From: Myxococcota bacterium
GTDB lineage: Bacteria > Myxococcota_A > UBA9042
NCBI GenBank assembly: GCA_049317445.1
Contig: JBMOIG010000007.1
Span: 3,700-67,699, forward strand
DNA: 64,000 nucleotides
Reading direction: 5' to 3'
A program made the position numbers and the translations under genes. The notes beneath the pieces were generated by a model. It searched no databases, was not told where the DNA came from, and saw only the letters and a list, made by a program, of their open reading frames with translations. Of the stretch, positions 2,741 through 64,000 are shown piece by piece (positions within the stretch are counted from its first letter, which is position 1; the number at the start of each line of letters is the position of its first letter).

Positions 2741-4666
2741 CTAGGGCTTGCAGACGACCGGGTAGTCGGTGCAGCAGTCACCATAGCCGGTGCAGGCGGA
2801 GTCGCAATAGCAGGATCCGCCGCCCGGCTTGGGCTGCCCGCTGGTCGTACCGCACTTCCCTTCGCAGGACGGACCCTTGCAGTCGTCGGGGCACGTGGAT
2901 GCTTCGTCACCGTCGCACGACTTGTCGCCGCAGGTAGGGACAAAGGGCCCGCAGTCCTTGGGGCAAGTCTTGCCGGTCTCCTGACCCGCGCACAGGCCGT
3001 CGCCGCAGCCCAGCTTGTCCGGGCACGGCTGGCTGCTGCATTCGCTGCAAAGGGCCACGCAGTCTGCGTCCCAAGCCGTTGAGCAGCAAAGCGGATCCTT
3101 GTCACAGACGCAGGCTTCGCACGCGCACCCGGGGCAGCCCGGGGCCTCGGAGTCCAGGCAGACCGGGCTGCATTGGCCGCAGTCCTTGGCGCAGGTCGCG
3201 CAGTGCTCGGTGCCGTTGCACACGCCATCGCCGCAGACGTTGATCGGCTTGGCACAGGCACCGCAGTCGAGGGTGCAGGACTCGCAGGTCTCGGCGCCCA
3301 TGCACTTGCCGTCGCCACAAAACGAGAAGGCCAGGCAGTCGTTCGGGCAGGTCTCCGTACTCTCAGCGCCCGAGCACTTGTTGTCGCCACACACGGCCGT
3401 CGTCGCACAGACCGGCCCCCCACAGTCGGTCGAGCACTCCTCGACGCAGAGGGAGTCCCAGGCCGACGAGCAGCAGTAGGTGTCCATCTTGCATACGCAG
3501 GCCTCGCAAGCACAGCCGGGGCAAGAGGGAGTGCTTTTCTGGATGCACTCGACCTTGCACGCCCCACAGTCCGCGGGACACGAACCGCAGTTCTCTGTCT
3601 CTGAACAGGTGCCGTCGCCGCAAGCGCCACCGCAGGATCCGCAGTCCTTGGGGCAAGAGGTGCATGCCTCGGTGTCACTGCATATGCTGTCGCCGCAGTA
3701 CGCGACGGGCTCGCAAGTCACGGTCAGCTTCATCGACCCGGTCGCCCCGGCGGGTGCGTCCAGGATGGCGACGCGGCTGGAGCCGGGCTGCAATCCGATG
3801 GTCACCGACGCGCTCACAAAGGCGTCGCACTGCCCGGGGTTGCAGGTGCCGGCGGCCACCGGGGGCAGCAGGAACAGGCCACCACCGGCGGCAAGGGCGT
3901 CTCCCGTCAGCTCCAGCTTGACTACCGCCGGCGTCGCGTCGACGGCGAGACGCACCGCCACCTCGCCCGCGCCGAAGTCGCCGGCCTGGCACTTGTATTG
4001 CGAGAACGTGCTGACACCGATGCCCGCCGTCCACTCGATGGACCCACCGCAGGGCAGTGCCTTGGGCTGGCAAGCCTTGGCCCCACACGAAGACGTGATG
4101 TCGCACGAGCCTTTGGAGCAGGTGCCCTTGCCGCCGCACTGACCCTTGAGCTCGCACGCGGCGCCGTCGGCAGAGAACAGCACCTGACACATGCCCGAGC
4201 CCACGTTGCAGCCCACGTGCATGCAGTCGCCCAACGGGTAGTTCAGGCAGTCGGCGTCGATGGAGCACTTGCCCGCGGCAACCTCTGCCGGCGTGTCGGA
4301 CGCAACGTCCGCATCGGGAACGATCGTGTCATCTTGGCCGTCGTGCGGAACGTCTGCCGCCACGACATCGTCGCTGCCAGCGTCGTCAAGGTCGGCGGTC
4401 TGGTCCGGCGCGATCGTCGTGTCGTCAGCGTCGGCCTGGTCCACGTCCGGCGCGATCGTGTCGACCGCGGTGTCGGTTTGGGGGGTGTCTGGGGTCGTCG
4501 TGTCGGTCTTGATGTCGGCCGCCACAGTGTCGGGGGGCGTCGTCACGTCGTTCGAGGTGCTGGCGGGCGTCACGGTGCCGCTGCAACCGACCGCCAAAAG
4601 GACCACGACCACGACACAAAGGGTGCTGACCCGCCGAAACACGCGGGCTGTCCAGAAGCTATCCAT
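2741..4666 (-). CDS. Cys-rich secreted lipoprotein with myxobacterial-type CGDGxC...C..DCGxC repeats and a C-terminal somatomedin-B-like motif
   Basis: The signal peptide is followed by the lipobox LLAVGC, then a D/T/P-rich linker. At least six repeats fit CGDGxCxGxExxxxCxxDCGxC, and a CPGCACEACVC...CCSxAWDxxCV module occurs twice. The C-terminus SCYCDSACTGYGDCCTDYPVVC matches the somatomedin B Cys pattern. Confidence 0.8.
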   Translation of the reverse strand: MDSFWTARVFRRVSTLCVVVVVLLAVGCSGTVTPASTSNDVTTPPDTVAADIKTDTTTPDTPQTDTAVDTIAPDVDQADADDTTIAPDQTADLDDAGSDDVVAADVPHDGQDDTIVPDADVASDTPAEVAAGKCSIDADCLNYPLGDCMHVGCNVGSGMCQVLFSADGAACELKGQCGGKGTCSKGSCDITSSCGAKACQPKALPCGGSIEWTAGIGVSTFSQYKCQAGDFGAGEVAVRLAVDATPAVVKLELTGDALAAGGGLFLLPPVAAGTCNPGQCDAFVSASVTIGLQPGSSRVAILDAPAGATGSMKLTVTCEPVAYCGDSICSDTEACTSCPKDCGSCGGACGDGTCSETENCGSCPADCGACKVECIQKSTPSCPGCACEACVCKMDTYCCSSAWDSLCVEECSTDCGGPVCATTAVCGDNKCSGAESTETCPNDCLAFSFCGDGKCMGAETCESCTLDCGACAKPINVCGDGVCNGTEHCATCAKDCGQCSPVCLDSEAPGCPGCACEACVCDKDPLCCSTAWDADCVALCSECSSQPCPDKLGCGDGLCAGQETGKTCPKDCGPFVPTCGDKSCDGDEASTCPDDCKGPSCEGKCGTTSGQPKPGGGSCYCDSACTGYGDCCTDYPVVCKP

Positions 4667-54058: not shown

Positions 54059-54757
54059 TCAGTTCGCCTCGACCAGCTCCGCCAGGCAGTCCTCGAAGAC
54101 CTCCGTCAGGTCCTCGATCTGCGACTCATCATCCAGTTCGCGTTCCAAGTTGCGTAGATAGACGACGACCGTGGTCTTGTCCCGCAGGTCCAACGCCCTT
54201 GTCAGCAGCTTGCCGCCCTTGGTCGGTCCCGGCGTGGGCACCTCCTGAAAGATGGGCTGCAACTTCAAGCCGTCCTTGGCGATCTCGCGCAGCACCTTCA
54301 GAATCGCCGCCTGTGCCCGCGGCCTGTCGAAGCGGGGCGGCGCCGGATACAGGCCCGGGTCACCCTCCGCTGCAAGCGCGTAGAGCTTGTCCGCCTCGGG
54401 GAACTGCCCCTGCAGCTCGTGCCACACCGCCTCCGCACGCTGCAACCGCGGGTCTTCACTGTCGATCGCGCGGGCCACCTCTACCTCGACGTGGGCGTCG
54501 TCGAAGCGTGCCAACTCGGTCAGCAGCACCGCCCGCATCGTGTACGCCTCGATCCACTCCGGGTCGCGCTGCACGTATTCCGCCAGCGACTTCAAGGCGT
54601 TCTCGGCCTGACCCAGCGCGATCTGCGCCTCGGCACGCCAAGCCCACCCGTCCGGGTCGTCCGGCGTCTCGCCGACAATGCGGCTCGCCAGGCTCAGCGC
54701 CTCGCGCGGGTCGTCGTCCAACAGGGCCTCGATTTCTTCGATGTCGCTTCTGCGCAT
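54059..54757 (-). CDS. TPR-like acidic cytoplasmic protein, hypothetical
   Basis: 232 aa with helical TPR-like repeats and an acidic C-terminus. It is convergent with the preceding gene. Confidence 0.6.
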   Translation of the reverse strand: MRRSDIEEIEALLDDDPREALSLASRIVGETPDDPDGWAWRAEAQIALGQAENALKSLAEYVQRDPEWIEAYTMRAVLLTELARFDDAHVEVEVARAIDSEDPRLQRAEAVWHELQGQFPEADKLYALAAEGDPGLYPAPPRFDRPRAQAAILKVLREIAKDGLKLQPIFQEVPTPGPTKGGKLLTRALDLRDKTTVVVYLRNLERELDDESQIEDLTEVFEDCLAELVEAN

Positions 54758-54974
54758 GACACGTCCTGTGCGGCCCGTGGGGCGGCGGTTGGGGTGTCGC
54801 CTACACCACGCCGGGACCCTGCGTCAATTCGCCCCACCCGTCGGGCCTTTGCCACCCGCGCCAACACCCCCAACCACATCGTTGTTTTCGCTTCCGTTTT
54901 CCGTCGCTGCGTTCCACAACCTCGCCCAACCGAACGTCCGTCCCAAACTTTCACGGTCATGACGACGCGGAGAC

Positions 54975-55003
54975 TTGACCCCTCCGAAAGCGGGGTGCTA
55001 AAT
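54975..55003 (+). promoter_or_regulatory. Sigma-70-like promoter candidate in a 573-bp divergent intergenic region
   Basis: TTGACC, a 17-nt spacer, then CTAAAT. It would give a roughly 320-nt leader before the exbB-like gene. Confidence 0.4.
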
Positions 55004-55330
55004 ACGGCGGCGTTCGGCTCGTCCGTCAGGGCGCGCAGCAACGCTTGTCGGCATGACAGCATGCATCCGACGCCGACACGGGGAGGGTCCCCGAACACAC
55101 CGAAGGGCATTCTTCTACCTCCCGTTCGTTTCGTCCCCAGGAGTCCTCCCCGACAGATTCCCCCGGCAACCGGTTCGCACCGAGAGCAGCGGGACCACGA
55201 AGAGGCGGACAGCAAGACGACGCGCAGAAGGCAGGAGCCCCAGAGCTGGGGGCAGCAGGGCGGTGTCCAGAGTCAGCCGCACACAAGTGCGGGTATCGAG
55301 CAGACAGCATCTTCACGGAGCAGACGACCG

Positions 55331-55996: not shown

Positions 55997-56240
55997 TGCG
56001 GTGCGTTGCTCCACGGCGGGCTTCGGCCTGACGAGGGAGTGGGTGTCTGACCGACTCGTCTGCTCGACGTGTCCTGCGGCCCGGAGCCCTCCCTGAAATA
56101 CGGGATGGCTCCGGGGCCGCGGGCTGAGCAGCAGTACTCGCCCGGTGGGGCTGACCGGCAGCGGCCGGCGAGCTCCGTGAGACCGTCCCGGCTTCCCCGG
56201 AACGGTGATCAACGCTCGACGAACGGACAGGAGAGAGACG

Positions 56241-56849
56241 ATGGGTGGTGGTTCTTCAGGAAAAGGCGGCGTAGCCGACGCGACACTGAACGTCGTGCCC
56301 TTCATCGATCTGCTGGCGTGCACGATCTGCTTCCTGCTGATTTCGGCGGTGTGGACCCAGATGTCCCGCGTCGACGTCGACCAGGCCCTTCCCAAGGCGA
56401 GCAAGACTCCTCCCAAGGAGCAGCCCAAGAAGGAACCGAAGATCAACGTGGCCATCACGCCCACGGGATACTTGGTCAACCTGTTCAACCTCGAGACCAA
56501 GCCCGAGCTTGCACAGCCGAAGCGCATCCCGACCGATGGCGAGTTCCGACTCTGCCGCGGCAAGGGTTCGGTGACGTCGTGCCAGGGCCAAATCGAGGTC
56601 TTCAAGAAGTACAACCGCCCCGAGCTGCGGAAGACCCTGGCCGGCTTCATGAAAGAGGCTGGCTTGGGCGACAAGGTCAAGGTGATGGTCGTGGCATCTG
56701 ACAAGGTGCAGTACCTGCACTTGATCGGCACCCTCGACGCGATCCTCGGCTCCTGCATCGACGATGCGGCCAAGAAGAACTGCCTGAGAAACCCCGCCGT
56801 CGGCGATCAGAATCTGCTGAAAGCCGAAGGGTTCACGGACTTCAACTAG
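56241..56849 (+). CDS. ExbD/TolR-family protein 1
   Basis: A GGAGAGAG RBS. The single transmembrane helix LNVVPFIDLLACTICFLLI carries the conserved Asp. It has a long periplasmic domain. Confidence 0.8.
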   Translation: MGGGSSGKGGVADATLNVVPFIDLLACTICFLLISAVWTQMSRVDVDQALPKASKTPPKEQPKKEPKINVAITPTGYLVNLFNLETKPELAQPKRIPTDGEFRLCRGKGSVTSCQGQIEVFKKYNRPELRKTLAGFMKEAGLGDKVKVMVVASDKVQYLHLIGTLDAILGSCIDDAAKKNCLRNPAVGDQNLLKAEGFTDFN

Positions 56850-56920: not shown

Positions 56921-57520
56921 ATGGCTGTCCACCACCCCGGATCACGAGCCGGCCACGGCATTGCCCTCAAGACCATCCAGAAGACGGTCAAGACGGGCGG
57001 AAGCAAGGCTATCTTTGCGACGCTGAACGTCGTGCCCATGATCGACCTCTTCATCATGCTCGTCATCTTTCTGATCCAGTCGTTCAGCGCGGCCGGCGAA
57101 CTGATGCTCGTTAACCCGAACGTCGCCATGCCCAAGGCCTCGTCGAAGGCCGAACTCGAGCGAGCGCCCATGGTCGCCCTGACCCGCGGCGACGGCAGCA
57201 CCCTTGGCGAAATGCTCTTTGAGAACAAGCGCATCATGAGCCTGGGCGACGTCAACGAGGTCAAGTACCCCAGCTGGGACATCAAGCCCCTGGCCGAGGT
57301 GTTGAAGAGTTCTTGGAAGTTCCAGCAGAACCCGAAGAACCCTCAGAAGGTTCGCGAAAACCGCAAGGTCATCATCCAATCCGACCGCACCGTGCCCTTC
57401 CAGGTCATCAAGATGGTCATGGCCACGTGTGGTCGTAATGAATACCGCGAGCCCAACTTCGCGATCATGGTCGACGGACGTGGCGACGAAGGGTTGGCTG
57501 GACCCGCGGCGCCTCCGTAG
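56921..57520 (+). CDS. ExbD/TolR-family protein 2
   Basis: The transmembrane helix LNVVPMIDLFIMLVIFLI carries the conserved Asp. Confidence 0.8.
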   Translation: MAVHHPGSRAGHGIALKTIQKTVKTGGSKAIFATLNVVPMIDLFIMLVIFLIQSFSAAGELMLVNPNVAMPKASSKAELERAPMVALTRGDGSTLGEMLFENKRIMSLGDVNEVKYPSWDIKPLAEVLKSSWKFQQNPKNPQKVRENRKVIIQSDRTVPFQVIKMVMATCGRNEYREPNFAIMVDGRGDEGLAGPAAPP

Positions 57521-57587: not shown

Positions 57588-58367
57588 ATGCCCGGCTTTC
57601 TAGCCCACTCGGCCGATCCCTTCTTCCCCACAGCCCGCCTTCGATCTCCGATCAGCGTGCGCGTTGCCATCAGCCTGCTGGTGGGCATCGTCTCGCTGCT
57701 GGCCGCCGCTTCCGAGGGCTGGGCGAGACCTGCCTCTCGCGTGTTCCTGAACGGCGTGCTCTCACCCGTATGGTTCAACGACGGCGACAGCTTCGCGGTT
57801 TTGGCGGGGCCGTATGCCGGCACCAAGGCTCGGCTTGCCGGCTACAACACGCTCGAGAGCTTCGGCAACGTGCACAAGTGGGGCGACTGGAAGGCTTCTG
57901 AGCTGTACGTCAACGCCAAGATGGCCACGCTGAACGCTCGAAGAGGGACCTGGCGCTGCACCTCGGACCTCCAACGTGACGGCTACGGCCGCATCCTCTG
58001 GGACTGCCCGGACCTTGCCGTCGACCAGATCCGCAAGGGCTTGGCGCACGCAATGACCGTGACCAAACTGCCGTCGCCCGACCGGTACATCGCCGCGCAG
58101 AAAGCCGCGATCGCCGAGAAGCGGGGCATGTGGGCCAAGGGCGTGCCGAAGTACATCCTGACGTCAGCGCACTCGAACGACGAGGGCTACGACGGCACGA
58201 CGTACAACCGCACCGTTTCGACCGAAGACGGCCACTCCGAGAAGTGGATCCACCTGGACATGTACAAGACGTGCCAGTGGGTCTGCCATGAGGCTGGGGC
58301 CTGTCACCTGTACGTCCCGTTCTCCCGCCGCTACGGCCAGGGAGCGGCGACGTGCTTGCACGATTGA
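57588..58367 (+). CDS. Staphylococcal-nuclease-like (SNase/thermonuclease) secreted nuclease
   Basis: An N-terminal signal anchor is followed by SNc motifs: FNDGDSF, RLAGYNTLES, RDGYGRILWD. Confidence 0.75.
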   Translation: MPGFLAHSADPFFPTARLRSPISVRVAISLLVGIVSLLAAASEGWARPASRVFLNGVLSPVWFNDGDSFAVLAGPYAGTKARLAGYNTLESFGNVHKWGDWKASELYVNAKMATLNARRGTWRCTSDLQRDGYGRILWDCPDLAVDQIRKGLAHAMTVTKLPSPDRYIAAQKAAIAEKRGMWAKGVPKYILTSAHSNDEGYDGTTYNRTVSTEDGHSEKWIHLDMYKTCQWVCHEAGACHLYVPFSRRYGQGAATCLHD

Positions 58368-58408: not shown

Positions 58409-59677
58409 ATGCTGCCCTCTCGAACCCTACCTTCTCGCCCGGTCCTCGGAGTCGCCTGCGTCGCTGGCTTGCTCGCGGTGGCGATGAGCGGCTGCTACGA
58501 CGTTCCTGTGACCAAGGACGGCGTCTTGCCTGTGCTTGGCTACGAGGCCGACAACCAGACCTGCAGCGACGGCATCGACAACGATCAGGACGGGATGATC
58601 GACTGCGATGACGTCGATTGCCTGCTGCTGTCGACCTTCTGCGGTGAGTACGTGCCGGCCGTTCCGACCTTCGAGGTCGAGAACACCGTCGAGCTCTGCG
58701 CCGACTTTCAGGACAACGACGACGACGGCCAGTTCGACTGCGGCGACAAGAAGTGTCAGAACCTGGCCGAGGCGTGCTGCCTTCGGGAATTCACCAACGA
58801 ACTCTGCAGCGACGGCAAGGACAACGACGGCAACGGCTACACCGACTGCAAGGACTACGGCTGCAGCAAGGGCATGTTCGTGACGGTGTGCACCGAGGAC
58901 TCCGACGTCGACTCGGCCGCGTGCACGGACGGCAAGGACAACGACGGCGACGGCAAGACCGATTGCGCCGATACGGGCTGCGACACCGTCCCCGCGTGCT
59001 TGCCGGCCAGCGAGCCCGAGGACACGCTGGCCAAGTGTCAGGACGGGATCGACAACGACGGCAACAAGTACATCGATTGCTTGGACTTCTCGTGCAGCAA
59101 GTCCAAGGACGCCGCCGTTGCCGAGTACTGCGCCACCGCGCCTGCTCTGGCCGAAGACACCGTGGCCCTGTGCAGCGACGGGCTCGACAACGACAAGAAC
59201 GGCTACATCGACTGCAACGACTTCTCCTGCAGCTCCAAGGGCACCCAAGAGGCGATGGACTACTGCGTCTCGATTGGCGAGAACACGGTGGCCAAGTGCT
59301 CGGACGGCATCGACAACGACAACAACGGCTTTGTCGACTGCGGCGACTACTCGTGCTCGCAGGCCGACGACTCCGCCGTGGTCAAGTACTGCGCGTCTGT
59401 CCTCGAAGTGACGTTCGAGCGTTGCAGCGACGACATCGACAACGATGGCAACGGCTACACCGACTGCGAAGACTACTCGTGCCGCAACTCGACCGACCTC
59501 TCGGTCAAGCAGGCGTGTCAGGAGAGCTTGGGCGACGGCACCGCGAAGTGCAGCGACGGCATCGACAACGACAAAGACGGATACGTCGACTGCGACGACT
59601 GGGATTGCAACTGGAACCCCGCCGTCGACATCTGCAAGAACAAGACGACCGGCAAGCCCCGGGTCTGCGGGTTCTAG
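58409..59677 (+). CDS. Lipoprotein built from about 10 tandem Cys/Asp-rich repeats (C-x-D-G-x-D-N-D-x-D-G-x-x-D-C-x-D-x-x-C)
   Basis: A GAGGAG RBS; the lipobox is AMSGC. The repeat can be read directly in the translation. It is acidic, with a DxDxDG calcium-loop-like core bracketed by Cys. Confidence 0.8.
   Translation: MLPSRTLPSRPVLGVACVAGLLAVAMSGCYDVPVTKDGVLPVLGYEADNQTCSDGIDNDQDGMIDCDDVDCLLLSTFCGEYVPAVPTFEVENTVELCADFQDNDDDGQFDCGDKKCQNLAEACCLREFTNELCSDGKDNDGNGYTDCKDYGCSKGMFVTVCTEDSDVDSAACTDGKDNDGDGKTDCADTGCDTVPACLPASEPEDTLAKCQDGIDNDGNKYIDCLDFSCSKSKDAAVAEYCATAPALAEDTVALCSDGLDNDKNGYIDCNDFSCSSKGTQEAMDYCVSIGENTVAKCSDGIDNDNNGFVDCGDYSCSQADDSAVVKYCASVLEVTFERCSDDIDNDGNGYTDCEDYSCRNSTDLSVKQACQESLGDGTAKCSDGIDNDKDGYVDCDDWDCNWNPAVDICKNKTTGKPRVCGF
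58562..59634 (+). repeat. Intragenic tandem repeat array (about 96-110 nt units) encoding Cys/Asp modules
   Basis: There are about 10 iterations of ...CSDGIDNDxDGxxDCxDxxC... at protein level, with GACAACGAC / GACGGC recurring at DNA level. Confidence 0.8.
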
Positions 59678-59697
59678 CAACGGAAAGTGAGGTCATC

Positions 59698-61362
59698 ATG
59701 AGGACGGCAGCCCTATTTGCGATGGCGGCCCTGGTAGTTGGGAGTTCGTTCGTGACGGCCGCGTGGGCCCAGCCCGCAAAGCCGGGTGCTCCCGCGCCCG
59801 CAGCGGAGGTCGCCCCCGCGGCACCGGCGGCTCAGACGCCAGCGGCACCCGTTCCCGCGGCGAATACCGGCGCGAAGGAGACGAACTGCGGCGATCGCAA
59901 GGACGACGACGGCGACGGCATGGTCGACTGCGCGGACGCCGACTGCAAAGGTGACATGCTGTGCAAGGTCGGGTCGGGACCCGAAGACGACGACGCGAAG
60001 TGCAGCGACTGGTTCGACAACGACGGCGACGGCTTCGTGGACTGCGACGACAGCGACTGCGACCAGGCCAAGCCTTGCCGCGGCTCGTGGCAGGGACCTC
60101 TGGAGAGCGGCGGCGGCGCGGGTGGCGCGAACAGCGTGCCGGACGACGTGCCTGAGCTGCGCGACGGCATGACCGTCGAGGACCTGATCGGCAAGGGCAG
60201 CGACAAGGACGGCGAGCGCAACGACGAGGTTTGCTCCGACGGCATCGACAACGACAACGACGGCAAGATCGACTGCGCCGACTTCGGCTGCCGGTTTGAC
60301 CCGGAAGTGACCGTCTGCCGTGGCAATCCGGGCATGCGCTTCTCGGTCGTCGCCGGCATCGAAGGCGCGTACGACATGGAGAAGAAGCAGGCCGACACCC
60401 GCTTCACCAAGCTGCAATTGCGGTCGTTTGGCCCAATCCTGCAGATCCCGAACTCGTTCTACCTCGTCAGCATGCGGGCCGAGCGGACACCGCGCCTGAC
60501 GTTTGCGATGTTTCAGGTCCCTCTGGGCACCAGCGGCCACTTCCTCAACCTGAACAGCGGCGGCGGCGGCCTGTCCAGCGGCTTGATCGTGTCGACGTCG
60601 AAGCAGCTGCTGGTCGAGCCCGCGTATTACCTCTACAACGCTTTCGAGCAGGGCAACGGCGCCGCAGTCGAAGTGTCCGGTCCGTTGGGCCACTCCGGCA
60701 AGCTCGTGTACCGGGCATTTGCGGCGGGCGGCTCGGGCCGGTCGACGGGCAACGTCGGCGGTCGCTACTTCACCTACGGCAACGAGAATTACACTTATGG
60801 CGTCGGCGGTCAGGTCGGCCTGAACGTATTCGGCACCGTCAGCCGCTTCGACTCACCGTTCCTCTACACCAGCGTGCCGCTGACCTGGGGCCTGACGCTG
60901 GGCGCCAAGTACGACCAGCGGGCGCAGGAGCGCTATCCCGCCTTCAACCTGAACAACGTGTTCCGCTACAAGAGGGTCGTCGCGACGGCTGAGGTGTACG
61001 GCAAGTACGCACTCGACTTCGAGCAGAAGTCGATCATCCCCGGCGCCAACCAGTTGGCGTACAACGTGCAGGTCGGCGTGCTGGCGATCCCCAAGGTGCT
61101 GCTGCTGGCGGCCGACTACGGCGCGTATGTGGCGGGCAAGCGTCTGGCAGGACCGGACAAACTGGAGACCGACCTGCGCAAGCAGCTGGACGAGTTCCAG
61201 TATCGCGCTGCCGCCCACGTGTACGTCTGGCGCAACATCGGTGTCGTCTCGCTGCTGTATCGCTTCCGCGAGGTTGCCGGCGCCCTGAACAGCTCGGGCG
61301 TGACGGTGGGTCCGAAGACGAATGAGCAGGAAGTGCTCGTCTCGACGCAGTACCGGTTCTAG
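59698..61362 (+). CDS. Putative outer-membrane beta-barrel protein with three N-terminal Cys/Asp repeats of the same family
   Basis: A GTGAGG RBS; signal peptide MRTAALFAMAALVVGSSFVTAAWA. Repeats NCGDRKDDDGDGMVDCADADC, CSDWFDNDGDGFVDCDDSDC and CSDGIDNDNDGKIDCADFGC are present. The C-terminal 350 aa show alternating beta-strand patterning and end in ...VSTQYRF (terminal Phe). Confidence 0.75.
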   Translation: MRTAALFAMAALVVGSSFVTAAWAQPAKPGAPAPAAEVAPAAPAAQTPAAPVPAANTGAKETNCGDRKDDDGDGMVDCADADCKGDMLCKVGSGPEDDDAKCSDWFDNDGDGFVDCDDSDCDQAKPCRGSWQGPLESGGGAGGANSVPDDVPELRDGMTVEDLIGKGSDKDGERNDEVCSDGIDNDNDGKIDCADFGCRFDPEVTVCRGNPGMRFSVVAGIEGAYDMEKKQADTRFTKLQLRSFGPILQIPNSFYLVSMRAERTPRLTFAMFQVPLGTSGHFLNLNSGGGGLSSGLIVSTSKQLLVEPAYYLYNAFEQGNGAAVEVSGPLGHSGKLVYRAFAAGGSGRSTGNVGGRYFTYGNENYTYGVGGQVGLNVFGTVSRFDSPFLYTSVPLTWGLTLGAKYDQRAQERYPAFNLNNVFRYKRVVATAEVYGKYALDFEQKSIIPGANQLAYNVQVGVLAIPKVLLLAADYGAYVAGKRLAGPDKLETDLRKQLDEFQYRAAAHVYVWRNIGVVSLLYRFREVAGALNSSGVTVGPKTNEQEVLVSTQYRF

Positions 61363-61446: not shown

Positions 61447-61500
61447 TCAGGCAGCGATCATCTCGTGCCGGCGGCCCTCTTCGCCCCGGGGCGGGTGGGC

Positions 61501-64000
61501 ATGGCGTGGAATTGGCAAGGGCGGGTGTGGGCGCCGGCAGCGGTGGCGGTGACGGCAGGTGCTGGCGTTGGTCTGCACGGTGGCCTTCCGCCGATGACGA
61601 CTGTGGCGCTGGCTGCAACCTGCGTTGCGATGGCGACTTGGGGGGTGCGTCGGCGGCTGCGGGGGCCACTGCTGCTCGCTGCGTGGGTCGCTCTGGGCCT
61701 TGTCTCCGCCGTGCGGGCCGAGCAGACGCTGACGCCCGGCGTCCTGCCGCCGCTGGATCTGCCACGGCCGGGGCTGGAAGCGCCGCTGCAGCTGCTGGAG
61801 GCGGCATCTGAGCCGGAGTGGAGTCCGGTCGGTCATCGCTTCACCGCAAAGTGGACCGCGCGCTGCCGGCCTGAACCCTTGCTGCGACGACTGGCGTGCG
61901 AAGCGAGAAGCGGCCTTGTGCGTGTCGACGTCGTCGGGCGAGACGTGCGGGTGCAGTTGGGAGATCGCGTGAGGGTGCGGGCGTTTACCACGCCTCCCCC
62001 CGCATTTCGCAACCCCGGGGCTTGGGATGCCCGAGAGTCGTGGACGCGTGCGGGCCTGGTGGCGGGCGTGCGCGTGCGGCGGGTGGGTGAGATCAGCTTC
62101 GAGGAACGGCCTCTGGCGGAACCCTTTGGTTGGGCAAGACATCCTCTGGGGGCTTTGCTGCACGTCATCGGGCGTTGGCGCAGGCACCTGAGCGACGCGC
62201 TGACGACCACGGTGCCGGGGCGCGCCGGGCAGACGTTTGCCGCCCTTGCGCTGGGGGACAAGGGGTCCGTCGACGAGCCGCTGCAAGCGTGGCTGCGGGC
62301 CACGGGCACGGCCCACGTGATGGCGGTGTCGGGCAGTCATCTCGCGCTGGTTGTGTGGATGGTGCGGGCGTTGTTGAAGTTCCTGGCCACGCGACTTGCG
62401 CGAGGGCTGTTTCGGCGGTTTCCGCGTGAACAACTGCTGGCGGTGCCGAGCCTGATGGCGACTTGGGGCTACGCGCTGCTGACGGGGGCGGCACCAAGCA
62501 CGCTGCGCGCGGCGGTCATGGCGACGGCGCTGGTGTTGGGGCGGGCGAGCGGACGGCAGCCGGGGCTGGGCGAGTCGCTGGGGTTGGCGGCGGTGGTGCT
62601 GATGCTGGTCGACCCCGTGGCGGTGGCGGATGTGGGGCTGCTGCTGTCGATTCTGGGCGTGCTGGGTCTGGCGTGGGCGGGTTGGGGGCAGGACCAGCCC
62701 CAAGAGGGCGGTTGGCGCACGCGGCTGAAGCATCATGGCGTGGTGTTCCTGAAGACGTGCGTGGCGCCATCGGCGTCGACGGCTCCGGCGACCCTGACCG
62801 TCTTTGGCGCGCTGCCGCTGGTTGGACCGCTGGCGAACGGTCTTGCCGTGCCCTACGCGGGGTTTCTGCTGCCGGTGGCGCTTGCGGCGATGATCCTGTC
62901 CGCGCTGGGGGCGTGGCTGGGTCCTGTGCGGGCGTGGATTGCGCCGGCGTGCGAGTTGGCGTTGTGGCCACTGGAGAAACTGGTAGCGTCTCCCAAGGCG
63001 TGGTGGCCGGTGTGGTCCGCGAGTGGGGCTCTGGCGCTGGTGGCCGGGCTGACGGTGCCGGCGGTCGTTGCGGCGTGGTGGCACGGGGGTCGATGGCGTG
63101 CAGTGGCGGCGGTCGCGCTGGTTGCGACGGCGGCGACATGGGCGGGATCTGTGTGGTTGCAGCGCGTTCCGCAGGGCACGGCTCGGCTGTCGTTCCTGGA
63201 CGTGGGACACGGCGACAGCACGTTGATCGAGCTGCCGGACGGGTCGAATCTGCTGGTCGACGGCGGTGGCGAGGTGGCGGACGACGGGCGAATTGGCGCG
63301 CAGGCGGTGGTGCCGTTCCTGAAGCATCACGGCATCCGGCGGATCGACCGCATGGTGCTGACCCATGGACACCCGGACCACGAAAACGGCCTGCTGGCGG
63401 TGGCGCGGGTCCTGCCTGTGGGCGAGCTGTGGTGGAACGGGCAGATCCCAGGCGGCGCCGAACATCAGGCACTGCTTGCCGAATTGACGCGACAGGGGAC
63501 GAGGTGGCGCGACTTTTCGGGGACGGGGGCGCAGCGGTCGTTCACTTGGGACGGCGTGCAAGTCCGCGTCCTGTGGCCTTTTCCGGTAGATGCCCCGTAC
63601 TCTGCCGCGCATGACTTCAACGACAACTCGCTGGTGCTGGAGGTCTCGACGGCAGGTGGGCGCGTGCTCCTCGCAGGCGACATCGAGGCGCCGGCGGAGG
63701 CGGCGCTGGCCAAGGCGCGGATGCTGCGGCCGGTCGATGTGCTGAAGGTGCCCCATCACGGCAGCCGCACCTCGAGCACACCGCCGCTGTTGGAGGGGGT
63801 GCGGCCGGGCCTGGCGGTGGTCGGTGCCCGTCCGTGGGGGCAACTGCCCTTTCCGCATCCGGAAGTGCGCGACCGCTACGCCCGCTACGGCATCCCGCTG
63901 TGGCCGACGACGGAGGGATGGGTCGAGGTGCTGGTCGGTCCCCAAGGGGCCAGCGCGAAACAGGAGGGGCACTCGTGGTCGTCCCAGCCTGGTCCACCCA
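61501..64000 (+). CDS. comEC: DNA internalization competence protein ComEC/Rec2 (competence domain + C-terminal metallo-beta-lactamase domain), C-terminus beyond the window
   Basis: Translated by hand. There are multiple transmembrane helices and the competence motif GTAHVMAVSGSHLALV. The MBL domain reads FLDVGHGDSTLIELPDGSNLLVDGGG ... MVLTHGHPDHENGL ... KVPHHGS. No stop occurs before 64000, so it is absent from the ORF track. GTG 61465 or 61495 are alternative starts. The 841-aa antisense ORF 61447..63972 is rejected. Confidence 0.9.
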   Translation, partial: MAWNWQGRVWAPAAVAVTAGAGVGLHGGLPPMTTVALAATCVAMATWGVRRRLRGPLLLAAWVALGLVSAVRAEQTLTPGVLPPLDLPRPGLEAPLQLLEAASEPEWSPVGHRFTAKWTARCRPEPLLRRLACEARSGLVRVDVVGRDVRVQLGDRVRVRAFTTPPPAFRNPGAWDARESWTRAGLVAGVRVRRVGEISFEERPLAEPFGWARHPLGALLHVIGRWRRHLSDALTTTVPGRAGQTFAALALGDKGSVDEPLQAWLRATGTAHVMAVSGSHLALVVWMVRALLKFLATRLARGLFRRFPREQLLAVPSLMATWGYALLTGAAPSTLRAAVMATALVLGRASGRQPGLGESLGLAAVVLMLVDPVAVADVGLLLSILGVLGLAWAGWGQDQPQEGGWRTRLKHHGVVFLKTCVAPSASTAPATLTVFGALPLVGPLANGLAVPYAGFLLPVALAAMILSALGAWLGPVRAWIAPACELALWPLEKLVASPKAWWPVWSASGALALVAGLTVPAVVAAWWHGGRWRAVAAVALVATAATWAGSVWLQRVPQGTARLSFLDVGHGDSTLIELPDGSNLLVDGGGEVADDGRIGAQAVVPFLKHHGIRRIDRMVLTHGHPDHENGLLAVARVLPVGELWWNGQIPGGAEHQALLAELTRQGTRWRDFSGTGAQRSFTWDGVQVRVLWPFPVDAPYSAAHDFNDNSLVLEVSTAGGRVLLAGDIEAPAEAALAKARMLRPVDVLKVPHHGSRTSSTPPLLEGVRPGLAVVGARPWGQLPFPHPEVRDRYARYGIPLWPTTEGWVEVLVGPQGASAKQEGHSWSSQPGPP

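Follow-up and report, generated by a model that had tools for sequence, protein, structure and literature searches.

A cysteine- and aspartate-rich tandem repeat of the NF033662 family in two adjacent envelope proteins of a Myxococcota bacterium, and its homology to the teneurin C-rich domain

The stretch of DNA analysed here (hereafter the window) comprises 64,000 nucleotides (nt) of contig JBMOIG010000007.1 (positions 3,700 to 67,699, forward strand) in the genome assembly GCA_049317445.1 of a Myxococcota bacterium. Two adjacent genes in this window, encoding a lipoprotein and an outer-membrane protein (OMP), specify a tandem repeat that is rich in cysteine and aspartate and has the core C-x-D-G-x-D-N-D-x-[DN]-G-x-x-D-C-x-D-x-x-C. 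We found that the repeat is an ordinary, high-scoring member of the named family NF033662 and that the two genes constitute, together with the gene directly upstream (p259), a conserved three-gene unit, i.e. an operon, across Polyangia-type Myxococcota. Judged by profile comparison, the repeat unit is moreover homologous to the C-rich domain of the teneurins, of which it is the bacterial counterpart. A motif scan recovered the core nine times in the lipoprotein and three times in the OMP, and the two genes are organised as follows (residue numbers in amino acids, aa):

58409..59677, forward strand: lipoprotein of 422 aa, with the lipobox ..LLAVAMSG/C29 and nine NF033662 repeats
58562..58642, forward strand: lipoprotein repeat 1 (C52..C78)
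58697..58777, forward strand: lipoprotein repeat 2 (C97..C123), with an additional conserved Cys124 right after it
58805..58891, forward strand: lipoprotein repeat 3 (C133..C161)
58922..58999, forward strand: lipoprotein repeat 4 (C172..C197), the unit that phmmer aligned to the teneurin structure 7PLP
59036..59131, forward strand: lipoprotein repeat 5 (C210..C241), with an 11-residue insert between its third and fourth Cys that is modelled as a helix
59171..59266, forward strand: lipoprotein repeat 6 (C255..C286)
59297..59392, forward strand: lipoprotein repeat 7 (C297..C328)
59423..59518, forward strand: lipoprotein repeat 8 (C339..C370)
59549..59635, forward strand: lipoprotein repeat 9 (C381..C409)
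59698..61362, forward strand: OMP of 554 aa, with a signal peptide, an Ala/Pro-rich linker, three repeats and a 16-strand barrel
59887..59964, forward strand: OMP repeat 1 (C64..C89)
60001..60078, forward strand: OMP repeat 2 (C102..C127)
60232..60318, forward strand: OMP repeat 3 (C179..C207), leading straight into the first barrel strand
60337..61359, forward strand: 16-strand porin-fold beta-barrel (aa 214-554), as modelled with AlphaFold2 (AF2) and compared with Foldseek

The first Cys of the successive units lies at residues 52, 97, 133, 172, 210, 255, 297, 339 and 381 of the lipoprotein and at residues 64, 102 and 179 of the OMP, and the 20-aa cores extend over nt 58562..59608 and nt 59887..60291, respectively. 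Outside these two proteins the core motif is absent from the whole window, all six frames considered. The initial annotation had put the number of copies at about ten in the lipoprotein and three in the downstream protein; the model of the NCBIfam family counts nine and three stretches, independently of the motif scan, so that the latter number stands and the former becomes nine. The extent originally assigned to the array, 58562-60320, starts precisely at the first Cys of unit 1 and stops shortly after the codon of the final Cys in the array (60316..60318). Each of the 12 units contains four Cys, in the arrangement C-x13-C-x4-C-x5..11-C, where three invariant Cys had been noted, and two disulfides per unit are thereby predicted. 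Similarly, the period from unit to unit is 36-45 aa, and a length of roughly 32 aa is closer to the conserved profile (32-36 positions) than to the repeat as such. The Asp residues at positions 3, 6, 8, 14 and 17 are invariant in all 12 units of the window, position 7 is Asn in 11 of them, and position 10 is either Asp or Asn. The copies are old and not the outcome of a recent expansion, because Tandem Repeats Finder (TRF) sees no array of the unit period at the DNA level and because the 60-nt cores have a mean nucleotide identity of only 71%. Codon use is strongly biased, and GAC accounts for 54 of the 60 invariant Asp codons.

The family to which the repeat belongs is described in NCBIfam as the 'acidic double-disulfide repeat' (NF033662, acid_disulf_rpt), a curated repeat hidden Markov model (HMM) of 32 positions with a cutoff of 41 bits. 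The lipoprotein scores 247.6 bits against this model (E 2.9e-75, nine stretches) and the OMP 89.8 bits (E 6.1e-26, three stretches), and even the third repeat of the OMP by itself reaches 43.3 bits. The repeat had been presented as previously undescribed, which, by the test that the initial annotation had itself set, cannot be maintained with both proteins so far above the cutoff of an already named family. The family is also very large: a profile built from the 12 units of the window and searched against 1.84 billion cluster representatives retrieved 10,678 of these at E <= 1e-3 and 4,026 at E <= 1e-10, including giant proteins with 20-44 copies of the repeat. All 36 multi-repeat proteins that were sampled from the hits of the window profile belong to NF033662, and some of the sampled proteins also carry P-domain, lamin-tail (LTD), PPC, MopE-motif, TSP3 or Endonuclease-I (Endonuclease_1) domains. 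A search of the accessible literature on the name and accession of NF033662 returned no paper, and neither a function nor a structure.

Other families that have a resembling core were considered and rejected. In the searches against the thrombospondin type-3 (TSP3), dockerin and TIGR02232 models, which the initial annotation had proposed, none of these matched and NF033662 matched instead. Pfam yielded no match at E <= 1 for either the lipoprotein or the OMP, and this holds for the thrombospondin type-3 models PF02412 and TSP3_bac (PF18884) as well as for the MopE motif PF11617, a model that does work elsewhere (4.3e-42 on other proteins). Membership of the dockerin/EF-hand group is likewise rejected, since Pfam gave no match and EF-hand proteins in the PDB reached only E 0.07-4.4 over 9-15 residues, and so is membership of TIGR02232 (myxo_disulf_rpt), which is not among the NCBIfam matches at E <= 1. 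A tblastn search of plasmid and phage collections in which the lipoprotein served as the query was negative, to which the low-complexity filter may contribute. For one ortholog of the OMP (P0076) a precomputed Pfam tag, PF27998.1, is available, and a newer Pfam release may therefore already model part of the OMP or the repeat. The repeat is unrelated to the Cys-rich repeat encoded at 2741..4666 (hhalign probability 0.3%), from which the initial annotation had also set it apart. The latter gene, on the minus strand, specifies a 641-aa Cys-rich lipoprotein with repeats of the CGDGxCxxxExxxxCxxDCGxC type that has no NCBIfam match (and is thus no TIGR02232 member) and no Pfam match; its repeat may be an unclassified one itself.

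A comparison of the 12-unit profile with all sequences in the PDB points to a relationship that extends beyond the bacteria. The top match is 7PLP, the C-rich domain of human teneurin-4 (E 2.7e-8), and the next matches are the ectodomains of Ten-4, fly Ten-m, Ten-2 and Ten-3, with E-values of 1e-3 to 3e-3 for Ten-2, Ten-3 and Ten-m (0.01 for one Ten-2 chain), below which only insignificant EF-hand loops appear. The single-sequence phmmer search with the lipoprotein also recovers 7PLP, repeat 4 being the aligned unit. In the reciprocal direction, the Ten-4 30-mer scores 43.0 bits on NF033662 (cutoff 41), against 43.3 bits for a unit of the window, and the cores quoted by Tucker et al. score 27.8 bits (Monosiga teneurin) and 37.1 bits (diatom glucanase) on the same model. 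At the level of structure, the predicted local distance difference test score (pLDDT) of the template-free AF2 model of the lipoprotein averages 77, and the 10-residue blocks within units 5-9 have means of 81-93. When this model was compared with the PDB using Foldseek it matched chains A and B of 7PLP with a root-mean-square deviation of 0.5-0.6 Å over 27 residues at 59% identity (probability 0.95-0.97, template-modelling (TM) score by target 0.62), and the only other matches were the weaker full-length Ten-4 chains 7BAM/7BAN, at probabilities of 0.69 and 0.38.

The structure 7PLP comprises residues 834-871 of human Ten-4 and was solved at 1.5 Å (Meijer et al. 2022, PMC9058538). It holds three octahedrally coordinated Ca2+ ions, the side-chain ligands of which are E835, D840, D843, N844, D845, D847, D851, D854 and D856, and three backbone carbonyls and two waters complete the coordination (PMC9058538). 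Sites I and II resemble those of thrombospondin type-3 repeats and site III resembles that of LDL-receptor A modules, the six Cys pair 1-3, 2-5 and 4-6 (C838-C857, C852-C863 and C858-C869), and Ca2+ raises the melting temperature of the teneurin C-rich domain and compacts its dimer (PMC9058538).

The HMM alignment of 7PLP to CSDGIDNDGDGyvDCxDxxC is gapless, and the equivalents are as follows. C838, C852, C857 and C863 correspond to the first to fourth Cys of the unit (C1 to C4); D840, D843, N844, D845, D847 and D851 to positions 3, 6, 7, 8, 10 and 14; and D854 and D856 to positions 17 and 19. Seven of the nine positions of ligand side-chains are conserved, as are the Cys of two of the three disulfides (C838-C857 and C852-C863). 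Conservation was counted in 1,483 units from 240 orthologs, in which positions 6, 8 and 14 were partly fixed by the search filter. The D840-equivalent is Asp in 82-93% of these units, the N844-equivalent Asn in about 80%, the D845-equivalent Asp in 95-99% (a column partly fixed by the filter), the D847-equivalent Asp or Asn in 98-99% and the D854-equivalent Asp in 96-100%. For the columns of D843 (fixed to D/N/E by the ortholog filter) and D851 (required by it), the window itself provides the count, i.e. Asp in 12 of the 12 units for either. Equivalents of C858 and C869 are absent from the units, the residue after C3 being S, R, Q or A; the unit therefore lacks the six-Cys, three-disulfide feature and is a relative of the teneurin C-rich domain rather than the same domain type.

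The homology to 7PLP supports in substance the initial proposal of a disulfide-clamped Ca2+-type module with a TSP3-like D-x-D-x-D-G loop. Two to three Ca2+ per unit would be bound and the disulfides C1-C3 and C2-C4 are predicted, which would explain why the family was named 'double-disulfide'.

In the case of the lipoprotein, the mature protein consists almost wholly of the nine repeats and is strongly acidic (net charge -64, isoelectric point (pI) 4.05). Nine units with three Ca2+ each, the stoichiometry suggested by the homology, would contribute +54 to be set against this charge. The number of repeats in the orthologs ranges from 4 to 12. In addition to the 36 Cys in the repeats the mature protein has two extra ones: Cys124 (58778..58780) directly follows the last Cys of unit 2, which gives a CC doublet, and Cys420 (59666..59668) lies at the C-terminal end, three residues from the terminus (..RVCGF). 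Neither position varies among 35 lipoprotein orthologs. The two Cys could be connected by a long-range disulfide, so that the rod would bend back on itself, or could provide an intermolecular link.

The OMP starts at the ATG at 59698, has a type-I signal peptide (..TAAWA/QP) and ends on ..STQYRF, a terminus that reads YRF or FRF in its orthologs. The AF2 model of the barrel, based on a 32-sequence alignment, has 10-residue block mean pLDDT values of mostly 73-96, with dips at loops, and includes an L3-like loop with a helix at residues 287-321. Its matches in the PDB (Foldseek) are headed by OmpU (8e-11) and continue with OmpF, Omp32, PorB, chitoporin and OprP, at a probability of 1.0 and a TM score by target of about 0.6, and no porin family of Pfam or NCBIfam matched the OMP. 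The barrel is basic (net charge +11, pI 9.6), while for the N-terminal extension the net charge is -28. The protein has exactly 12 Cys, and a comparison of 32 orthologs with 51-64% identity shows all of these and the D/N/G core to be invariant; the orthologs always have three units (363 units, 120 orthologs). A GenBank entry from a Myxococcota metagenome-assembled genome, annotated as 'hypothetical protein', has the same sequence as the OMP. The homologs number 815, and those among the 120 listed ones that were named by their source are all called 'hypothetical protein'. Between units 2 and 3 lies a non-repeat segment (aa 150-178, 60145..60231; consensus PELGxGxxVEDLIGKGxDKDGERNDE) that is conserved across the 32 orthologs, with L163, G165, D169, G172, E173 and R174 invariant; it has no family match and could be a partner-binding site.

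In all known barrel proteins of the outer membrane that have an even number of strands both termini face the periplasm. The three repeats of the OMP are most likely periplasmic rather than surface-exposed, because the modelled 16-strand barrel puts both termini there, and the placement of the repeats on the cell surface in the initial annotation is thus not supported. An autotransporter-like arrangement, in which the N-terminal part would be a passenger that travels through the barrel, is unlikely in view of the 16 strands, the porin fold, the L3-type loop and the disulfide-bonded nature of the 'passenger'.

The genomic context of the two genes was surveyed with one genome per species, by which 122 loci were found and 80 kept. 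Most of these carry titles of the Myxococcota/Polyangia type (Polyangiaceae, Nannocystaceae, Haliangium, Plesiocystis, Enhygromyxa and Paraliomyxa), and the rest have generic or apparently mislabelled titles. Five loci (L001, L021, L031, L047 and L048) are titled 'uncultured Enterobacteriaceae bacterium' or 'Klebsiella pneumoniae' despite their Myxococcota gene cluster; L001 is 94% identical to the window, and such titles are probably taxonomic mislabels of metagenome-assembled genomes. The lipoprotein gene lies immediately upstream of the OMP gene in all 80 loci and is itself preceded by p259 in 76, the four exceptions being loci that begin no more than about 500 nt before the lipoprotein gene. 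In one Polyangiaceae and one Haliangium genome the genes on either side of the trio are housekeeping genes with no relation to it. Within the window the gaps are 41 nt (p259 to lipoprotein) and 20 nt (lipoprotein to OMP), and no terminator-like site was found between the trio genes on the forward strand. The third member of the trio and the further neighbours are:

57588..58367, forward strand: p259, a secreted protein of 259 aa, probably of the thermonuclease family, i.e. staphylococcal nuclease (SNase)-like, according to its signal peptide, ortholog profile and residues
55331..55996, forward strand: MotA/ExbB-family gene, context of the closest clade only
56205..56849 and 56921..57520, forward strand: two ExbD/TolR-family genes, context of the closest clade only
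61465..63999, forward strand: ComEC/Rec2 DNA-internalisation protein (TIGR00361, 243 bits), running off the window end; present in 25 of the 80 loci

The protein p259 is probably a divergent enzyme of the SNase fold. In NCBI and JGI records, p259 or its relatives go under the names 'thermonuclease family protein' and 'endonuclease YncB', and PF00565 is assigned to a few of the relatives. Its orthologs share an invariant DGDS, R-x4-N-x-L-E and D-x-Y-x-R, with D67, R82, E90 and R135 invariant, and these motifs we take to represent D21, R35, D40 (replaced by Asn), E43, Y85 and R87 of SNase. Staphylococcal nuclease is Ca2+-dependent. The C-terminal extension of p259 has four invariant Cys, and many orthologs have an insertion of about 50-95 aa (in most about 60) between the Cys pairs, which gives forms of 318-360 aa.

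The ExbB/ExbD/ExbD genes, the trio and ComEC/Rec2 are co-directional, and together with a divergent tetratricopeptide-repeat (TPR) gene (54059..54757) this arrangement is kept in about 26 of the 80 loci. ExbB/ExbD/ExbD and ComEC are rejected as parts of the core of the system: they adjoin the trio in just those 26 or so loci and are missing in Polyangiaceae and Haliangium. The vicinity of the ExbB/ExbD genes yielded no TonB-like gene. The divergent TPR gene and the ExbB-like gene are separated by an unusually long non-coding stretch of about 570 nt (54758..55330), which has a G+C content of about 63-65%, compared to about 68% elsewhere.

Taken together, we consider it probable (roughly 0.7) that the repeat is an NF033662/teneurin-type Ca2+ module, predicted to be stapled by two disulfides; as to its role, we suppose that the units would serve as a Ca2+-rigidified, anionic scaffold that organises the lipoprotein, the porin and the nuclease at the inner face of the outer membrane. 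This reading builds on the family membership, the homology to 7PLP, the conservation of ligands and Cys, the porin fold and the gene linkage, and from these we infer the actual binding of Ca2+, the pairing of the disulfides, the periplasmic location and the role in assembly. Each unit of 36-45 aa would wrap its invariant Asp/Asn side-chains around two to three Ca2+, two of the sites being thrombospondin-type-3-like and the third, LDL-receptor-A-like one probably weaker or absent in many units, and the disulfides C1-C3 and C2-C4 would staple the unit. For its folding it would therefore depend on an oxidising compartment that contains Ca2+, e.g. the periplasm or the cell exterior. Nine such units would form essentially the whole mature lipoprotein and three the periplasmic N-terminal extension of a basic 16-strand porin, so that the arrays would make up Ca2+-rigidified and strongly anionic stalks or scaffolds on the inner face of the outer membrane. 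Such a scaffold could gather the lipoprotein, the porin and a Ca2+-dependent nuclease for the breakdown of nucleic acids and the uptake of the products, and the basic porin would suit anionic breakdown products.

Several observations weigh against this interpretation. With respect to the unit itself, the Foldseek match to 7PLP has an E-value of 0.8-1.1, which for so tiny a domain is not significant alone and was used as corroboration only. The third Ca2+ site may be missing, because two ligand positions are poorly kept: the D856-equivalent is Asp in only 30-56% of the units, and the E835-equivalent is acidic in about 79% of the OMP units and in about 28% of the lipoprotein units, which have a conserved Glu three residues upstream of it instead. 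The repeats of the OMP are modelled by AF2 with low confidence (10-residue block means of 50-68, and 30-41 in the inter-repeat linkers). With respect to the proposed function, the repeat is a general-purpose module and not nuclease-specific, because it is present in thousands of unrelated large secreted proteins, and gene linkage is no proof of a physical or functional complex. The assignment of p259 to the SNases is weak by sequence, as it has no Pfam or NCBIfam match, the profile of 26 orthologs matches in the PDB only staphylococcal thermonuclease, at a best E of 4.5e-3, and the equivalent of the Ca2+ ligand D40 is an invariant Asn. Finally, the adjacency of ComEC and ExbBD is limited to one clade.

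An alternative is an envelope spacer or tether that is unrelated to the nuclease, an explanation that we regard as possible but doubtful. Here, Ca2+-stiffened rods would space the outer membrane from the peptidoglycan or another periplasmic layer, or attach it to such a layer, by analogy with Lpp and with the surface-layer homology (SLH) domain extensions of porins in other phyla. A porin-fold barrel that is preceded by an Ala/Pro-rich linker and then repeats, as well as a lipoprotein that is almost nothing but repeats, would suit such a role, and the module is a generic linker in many large secreted proteins. The variation in repeat number from 4 to 12 between species, which is as in spacer proteins, at the same time speaks against a precise ruler; moreover, Pfam and NCBIfam detect no peptidoglycan-binding domain, and the strict linkage with a thermonuclease-family gene is left unexplained.

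Two further alternatives we hold to be distinctly unlikely. In the first, the lipoprotein acts as a calsequestrin-like periplasmic store or buffer that supplies Ca2+ to a Ca2+-dependent nuclease or stabilises the outer membrane when Ca2+ is scarce, e.g. in fresh water. By homology the protein would offer up to 27 Ca2+ sites at a net charge of -64, its partner gene is SNase-like, and several of the closest relatives are metagenome-assembled genomes from lakes or groundwater; however, a disulfide-stapled fold suggests a structural role, and the Ca2+ in teneurin is structural and fully coordinated (PMC9058538), which implies a high affinity and slow exchange rather than buffering. The second is the view of the initial annotation, according to which the repeats form an acidic Ca2+ array on the cell surface that uses Ca2+ bridges to bind DNA, polysaccharide or partner proteins, i.e. 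acts as an adhesin or a receptor for extracellular DNA. Lipoproteins of myxobacteria can be surface-exposed, the repeat occurs in large proteins that also have domains of an adhesin-type, secreted or nuclease-associated kind (LTD, PPC, P-domain and Endonuclease_1), and both the nuclease linkage and, in one clade, the adjacency of ComEC would fit. Against it stand the porin topology, which puts the three units of the OMP in the periplasm, the failure to detect a DNA-binding domain, and the full coordination of the Ca2+ in 7PLP by protein and water, which leaves little room for bridging ligands (PMC9058538).

We deem it very improbable that the lipoprotein is a nuclease inhibitor, i.e. a polyanionic mimic of DNA that fills the DNA-binding cleft of the enzyme and protects the periplasm of the producer until export. 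Acidic DNA-mimic inhibitors of nucleases do exist, and the tight order of a nuclease gene followed by the gene for an extremely negatively charged protein would agree with this, but loading with Ca2+ would neutralise most of the charge, the presence of the same kind of repeat in the porin would go unexplained, and the repeat is widespread in proteins that have no nuclease nearby. A compositional or low-complexity artefact of a GC-rich genome, devoid of conserved function, which the initial annotation had named beforehand as what would undo its claim, is excluded despite the Asp-rich sequence and the predominance of GAC among the invariant Asp codons, given the HMM match at E = 2.9e-75 to a curated family, the homology to a solved structure (7PLP), the Cys and Asp columns that are invariant across orthologs of 46-64% identity, and the lack of the motif in the five alternative frames and in the remainder of the window.

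The link between the repeat and the teneurin C-rich domain has a bearing on the origin of the latter. Tucker et al. (2012) noted that the teneurin motif is similar to a diatom enzyme, to algal proteins and to the MopE motif, to which they aligned it, and proposed a diatom or algal origin for this one piece of the teneurin ectodomain. In a 2026 paper devoted to the teneurin-like proteins of bacteria the C-rich region is not discussed for these organisms, and the repeat motif was not found in its supplements, of which the material searched consists of gapped superfold alignments only. The equation of the teneurin C-rich domain with an abundant bacterial tandem repeat is therefore probably unreported, in so far as no such statement was found in a searchable literature that is incomplete. 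The lipoprotein family is restricted to Myxococcota, and teneurin-like toxins are encoded by more than 20% of the species in this phylum. It is plausible that the C-rich module of the teneurins, too, is of bacterial origin, because the repeat fills a lipoprotein restricted to a phylum so rich in teneurin-like toxins. Only tentatively do we advance the more far-reaching combination, namely that the teneurin C-rich domain descends from the prokaryotic repeat or is its sister and that, at the same time, the trio is an undescribed Ca2+-dependent envelope machine of Polyangia for the degradation of nucleic acids and the import of the products, coupled in one clade to an ExbB/ExbD motor and ComEC.

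As a 'new repeat' the element would have no significance, the family being already named and very common. What we put forward as new is that a member of a known family has a probably unreported link to the teneurins and sits in a conserved and uncharacterised gene trio. The link provides NF033662, a common but uncharacterised family, with a structural template at 1.5 Å (the Ten-4 C-rich domain, with three Ca2+ and defined disulfides), it makes the binding of Ca2+ and the pairing of the disulfides in the bacterial repeat testable, and it touches the question of the evolutionary origin of the teneurin domain that was attributed to a diatom or algal donor (Tucker et al. 2012). The trio may relate to the handling of prey nucleic acids by these predators, or to the organisation of the envelope.

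Compared with known systems, the repeat comes closest to its own family and to the teneurin C-rich domain. The two proteins of the window reach 2-6 times the curated cutoff of NF033662, and their units have its four Cys and its Asp-rich core and show no difference from the family; it is the architectures, i.e. a repeat-only lipoprotein and a fusion of repeats with a porin, that are specific to the Polyangia gene trio. The likeness to the teneurin domain concerns seven of the nine positions of the Ca2+-ligand side-chains, the Cys of two disulfides and the fold of the AF2-modelled unit. The bacterial units differ in that they have four Cys and lack the third disulfide (C858-C869) and the conotoxin-like tail, in that the spacing between C3 and C4 is variable (5-11 residues) and often helical, and in that the D856-equivalent ligand is often missing. 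Furthermore, the teneurin domain occurs as a single copy in a YD-shell protein, whereas the bacterial units occur in arrays of 3-12 (up to about 44 elsewhere) and are hosted here by a lipoprotein and a porin. Thrombospondin type-3 repeats (PF02412; TSP-1, 1UX6) have in common with the units the D-x-D-x-D-G-x-x-D Ca2+ loop and the flanking disulfides, and their coordination is matched by Ca sites I and II of the teneurin homolog, yet the Cys pattern and the unit length differ, so that the repeat would work like a type-3 repeat without being a member. The LDL-receptor class A (LA) module is, likewise, a small Ca2+-caged and disulfide-rich unit that resembles the teneurin homolog in Ca site III and in disulfide topology; it has six Cys and one Ca2+, however, neither Pfam nor the PDB profile search gave a match to it, and the LA-like site is the least conserved one in units of the window type. 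The MopE motif (PF11617) has a similar core, C-x-G-x-D-[DN]-D-C-D-G-x-x-D, and is found together with NF033662 repeats in 2 of the 36 sampled proteins, but its register is shifted by one residue and its Cys positions differ. The barrel shares with the general porins (OmpF/OmpU/Omp32/PorB) the fold, the 16 strands, the L3-like loop and the C-terminal aromatic residue, and differs from them in being basic (pI 9.6) and in having no match to their sequence families. SLH-porins are porins with periplasmic N-terminal anchoring domains; the OMP resembles these in the idea of an N-terminal periplasmic extension, which consists here of Ca2+-type repeats instead of an SLH domain.

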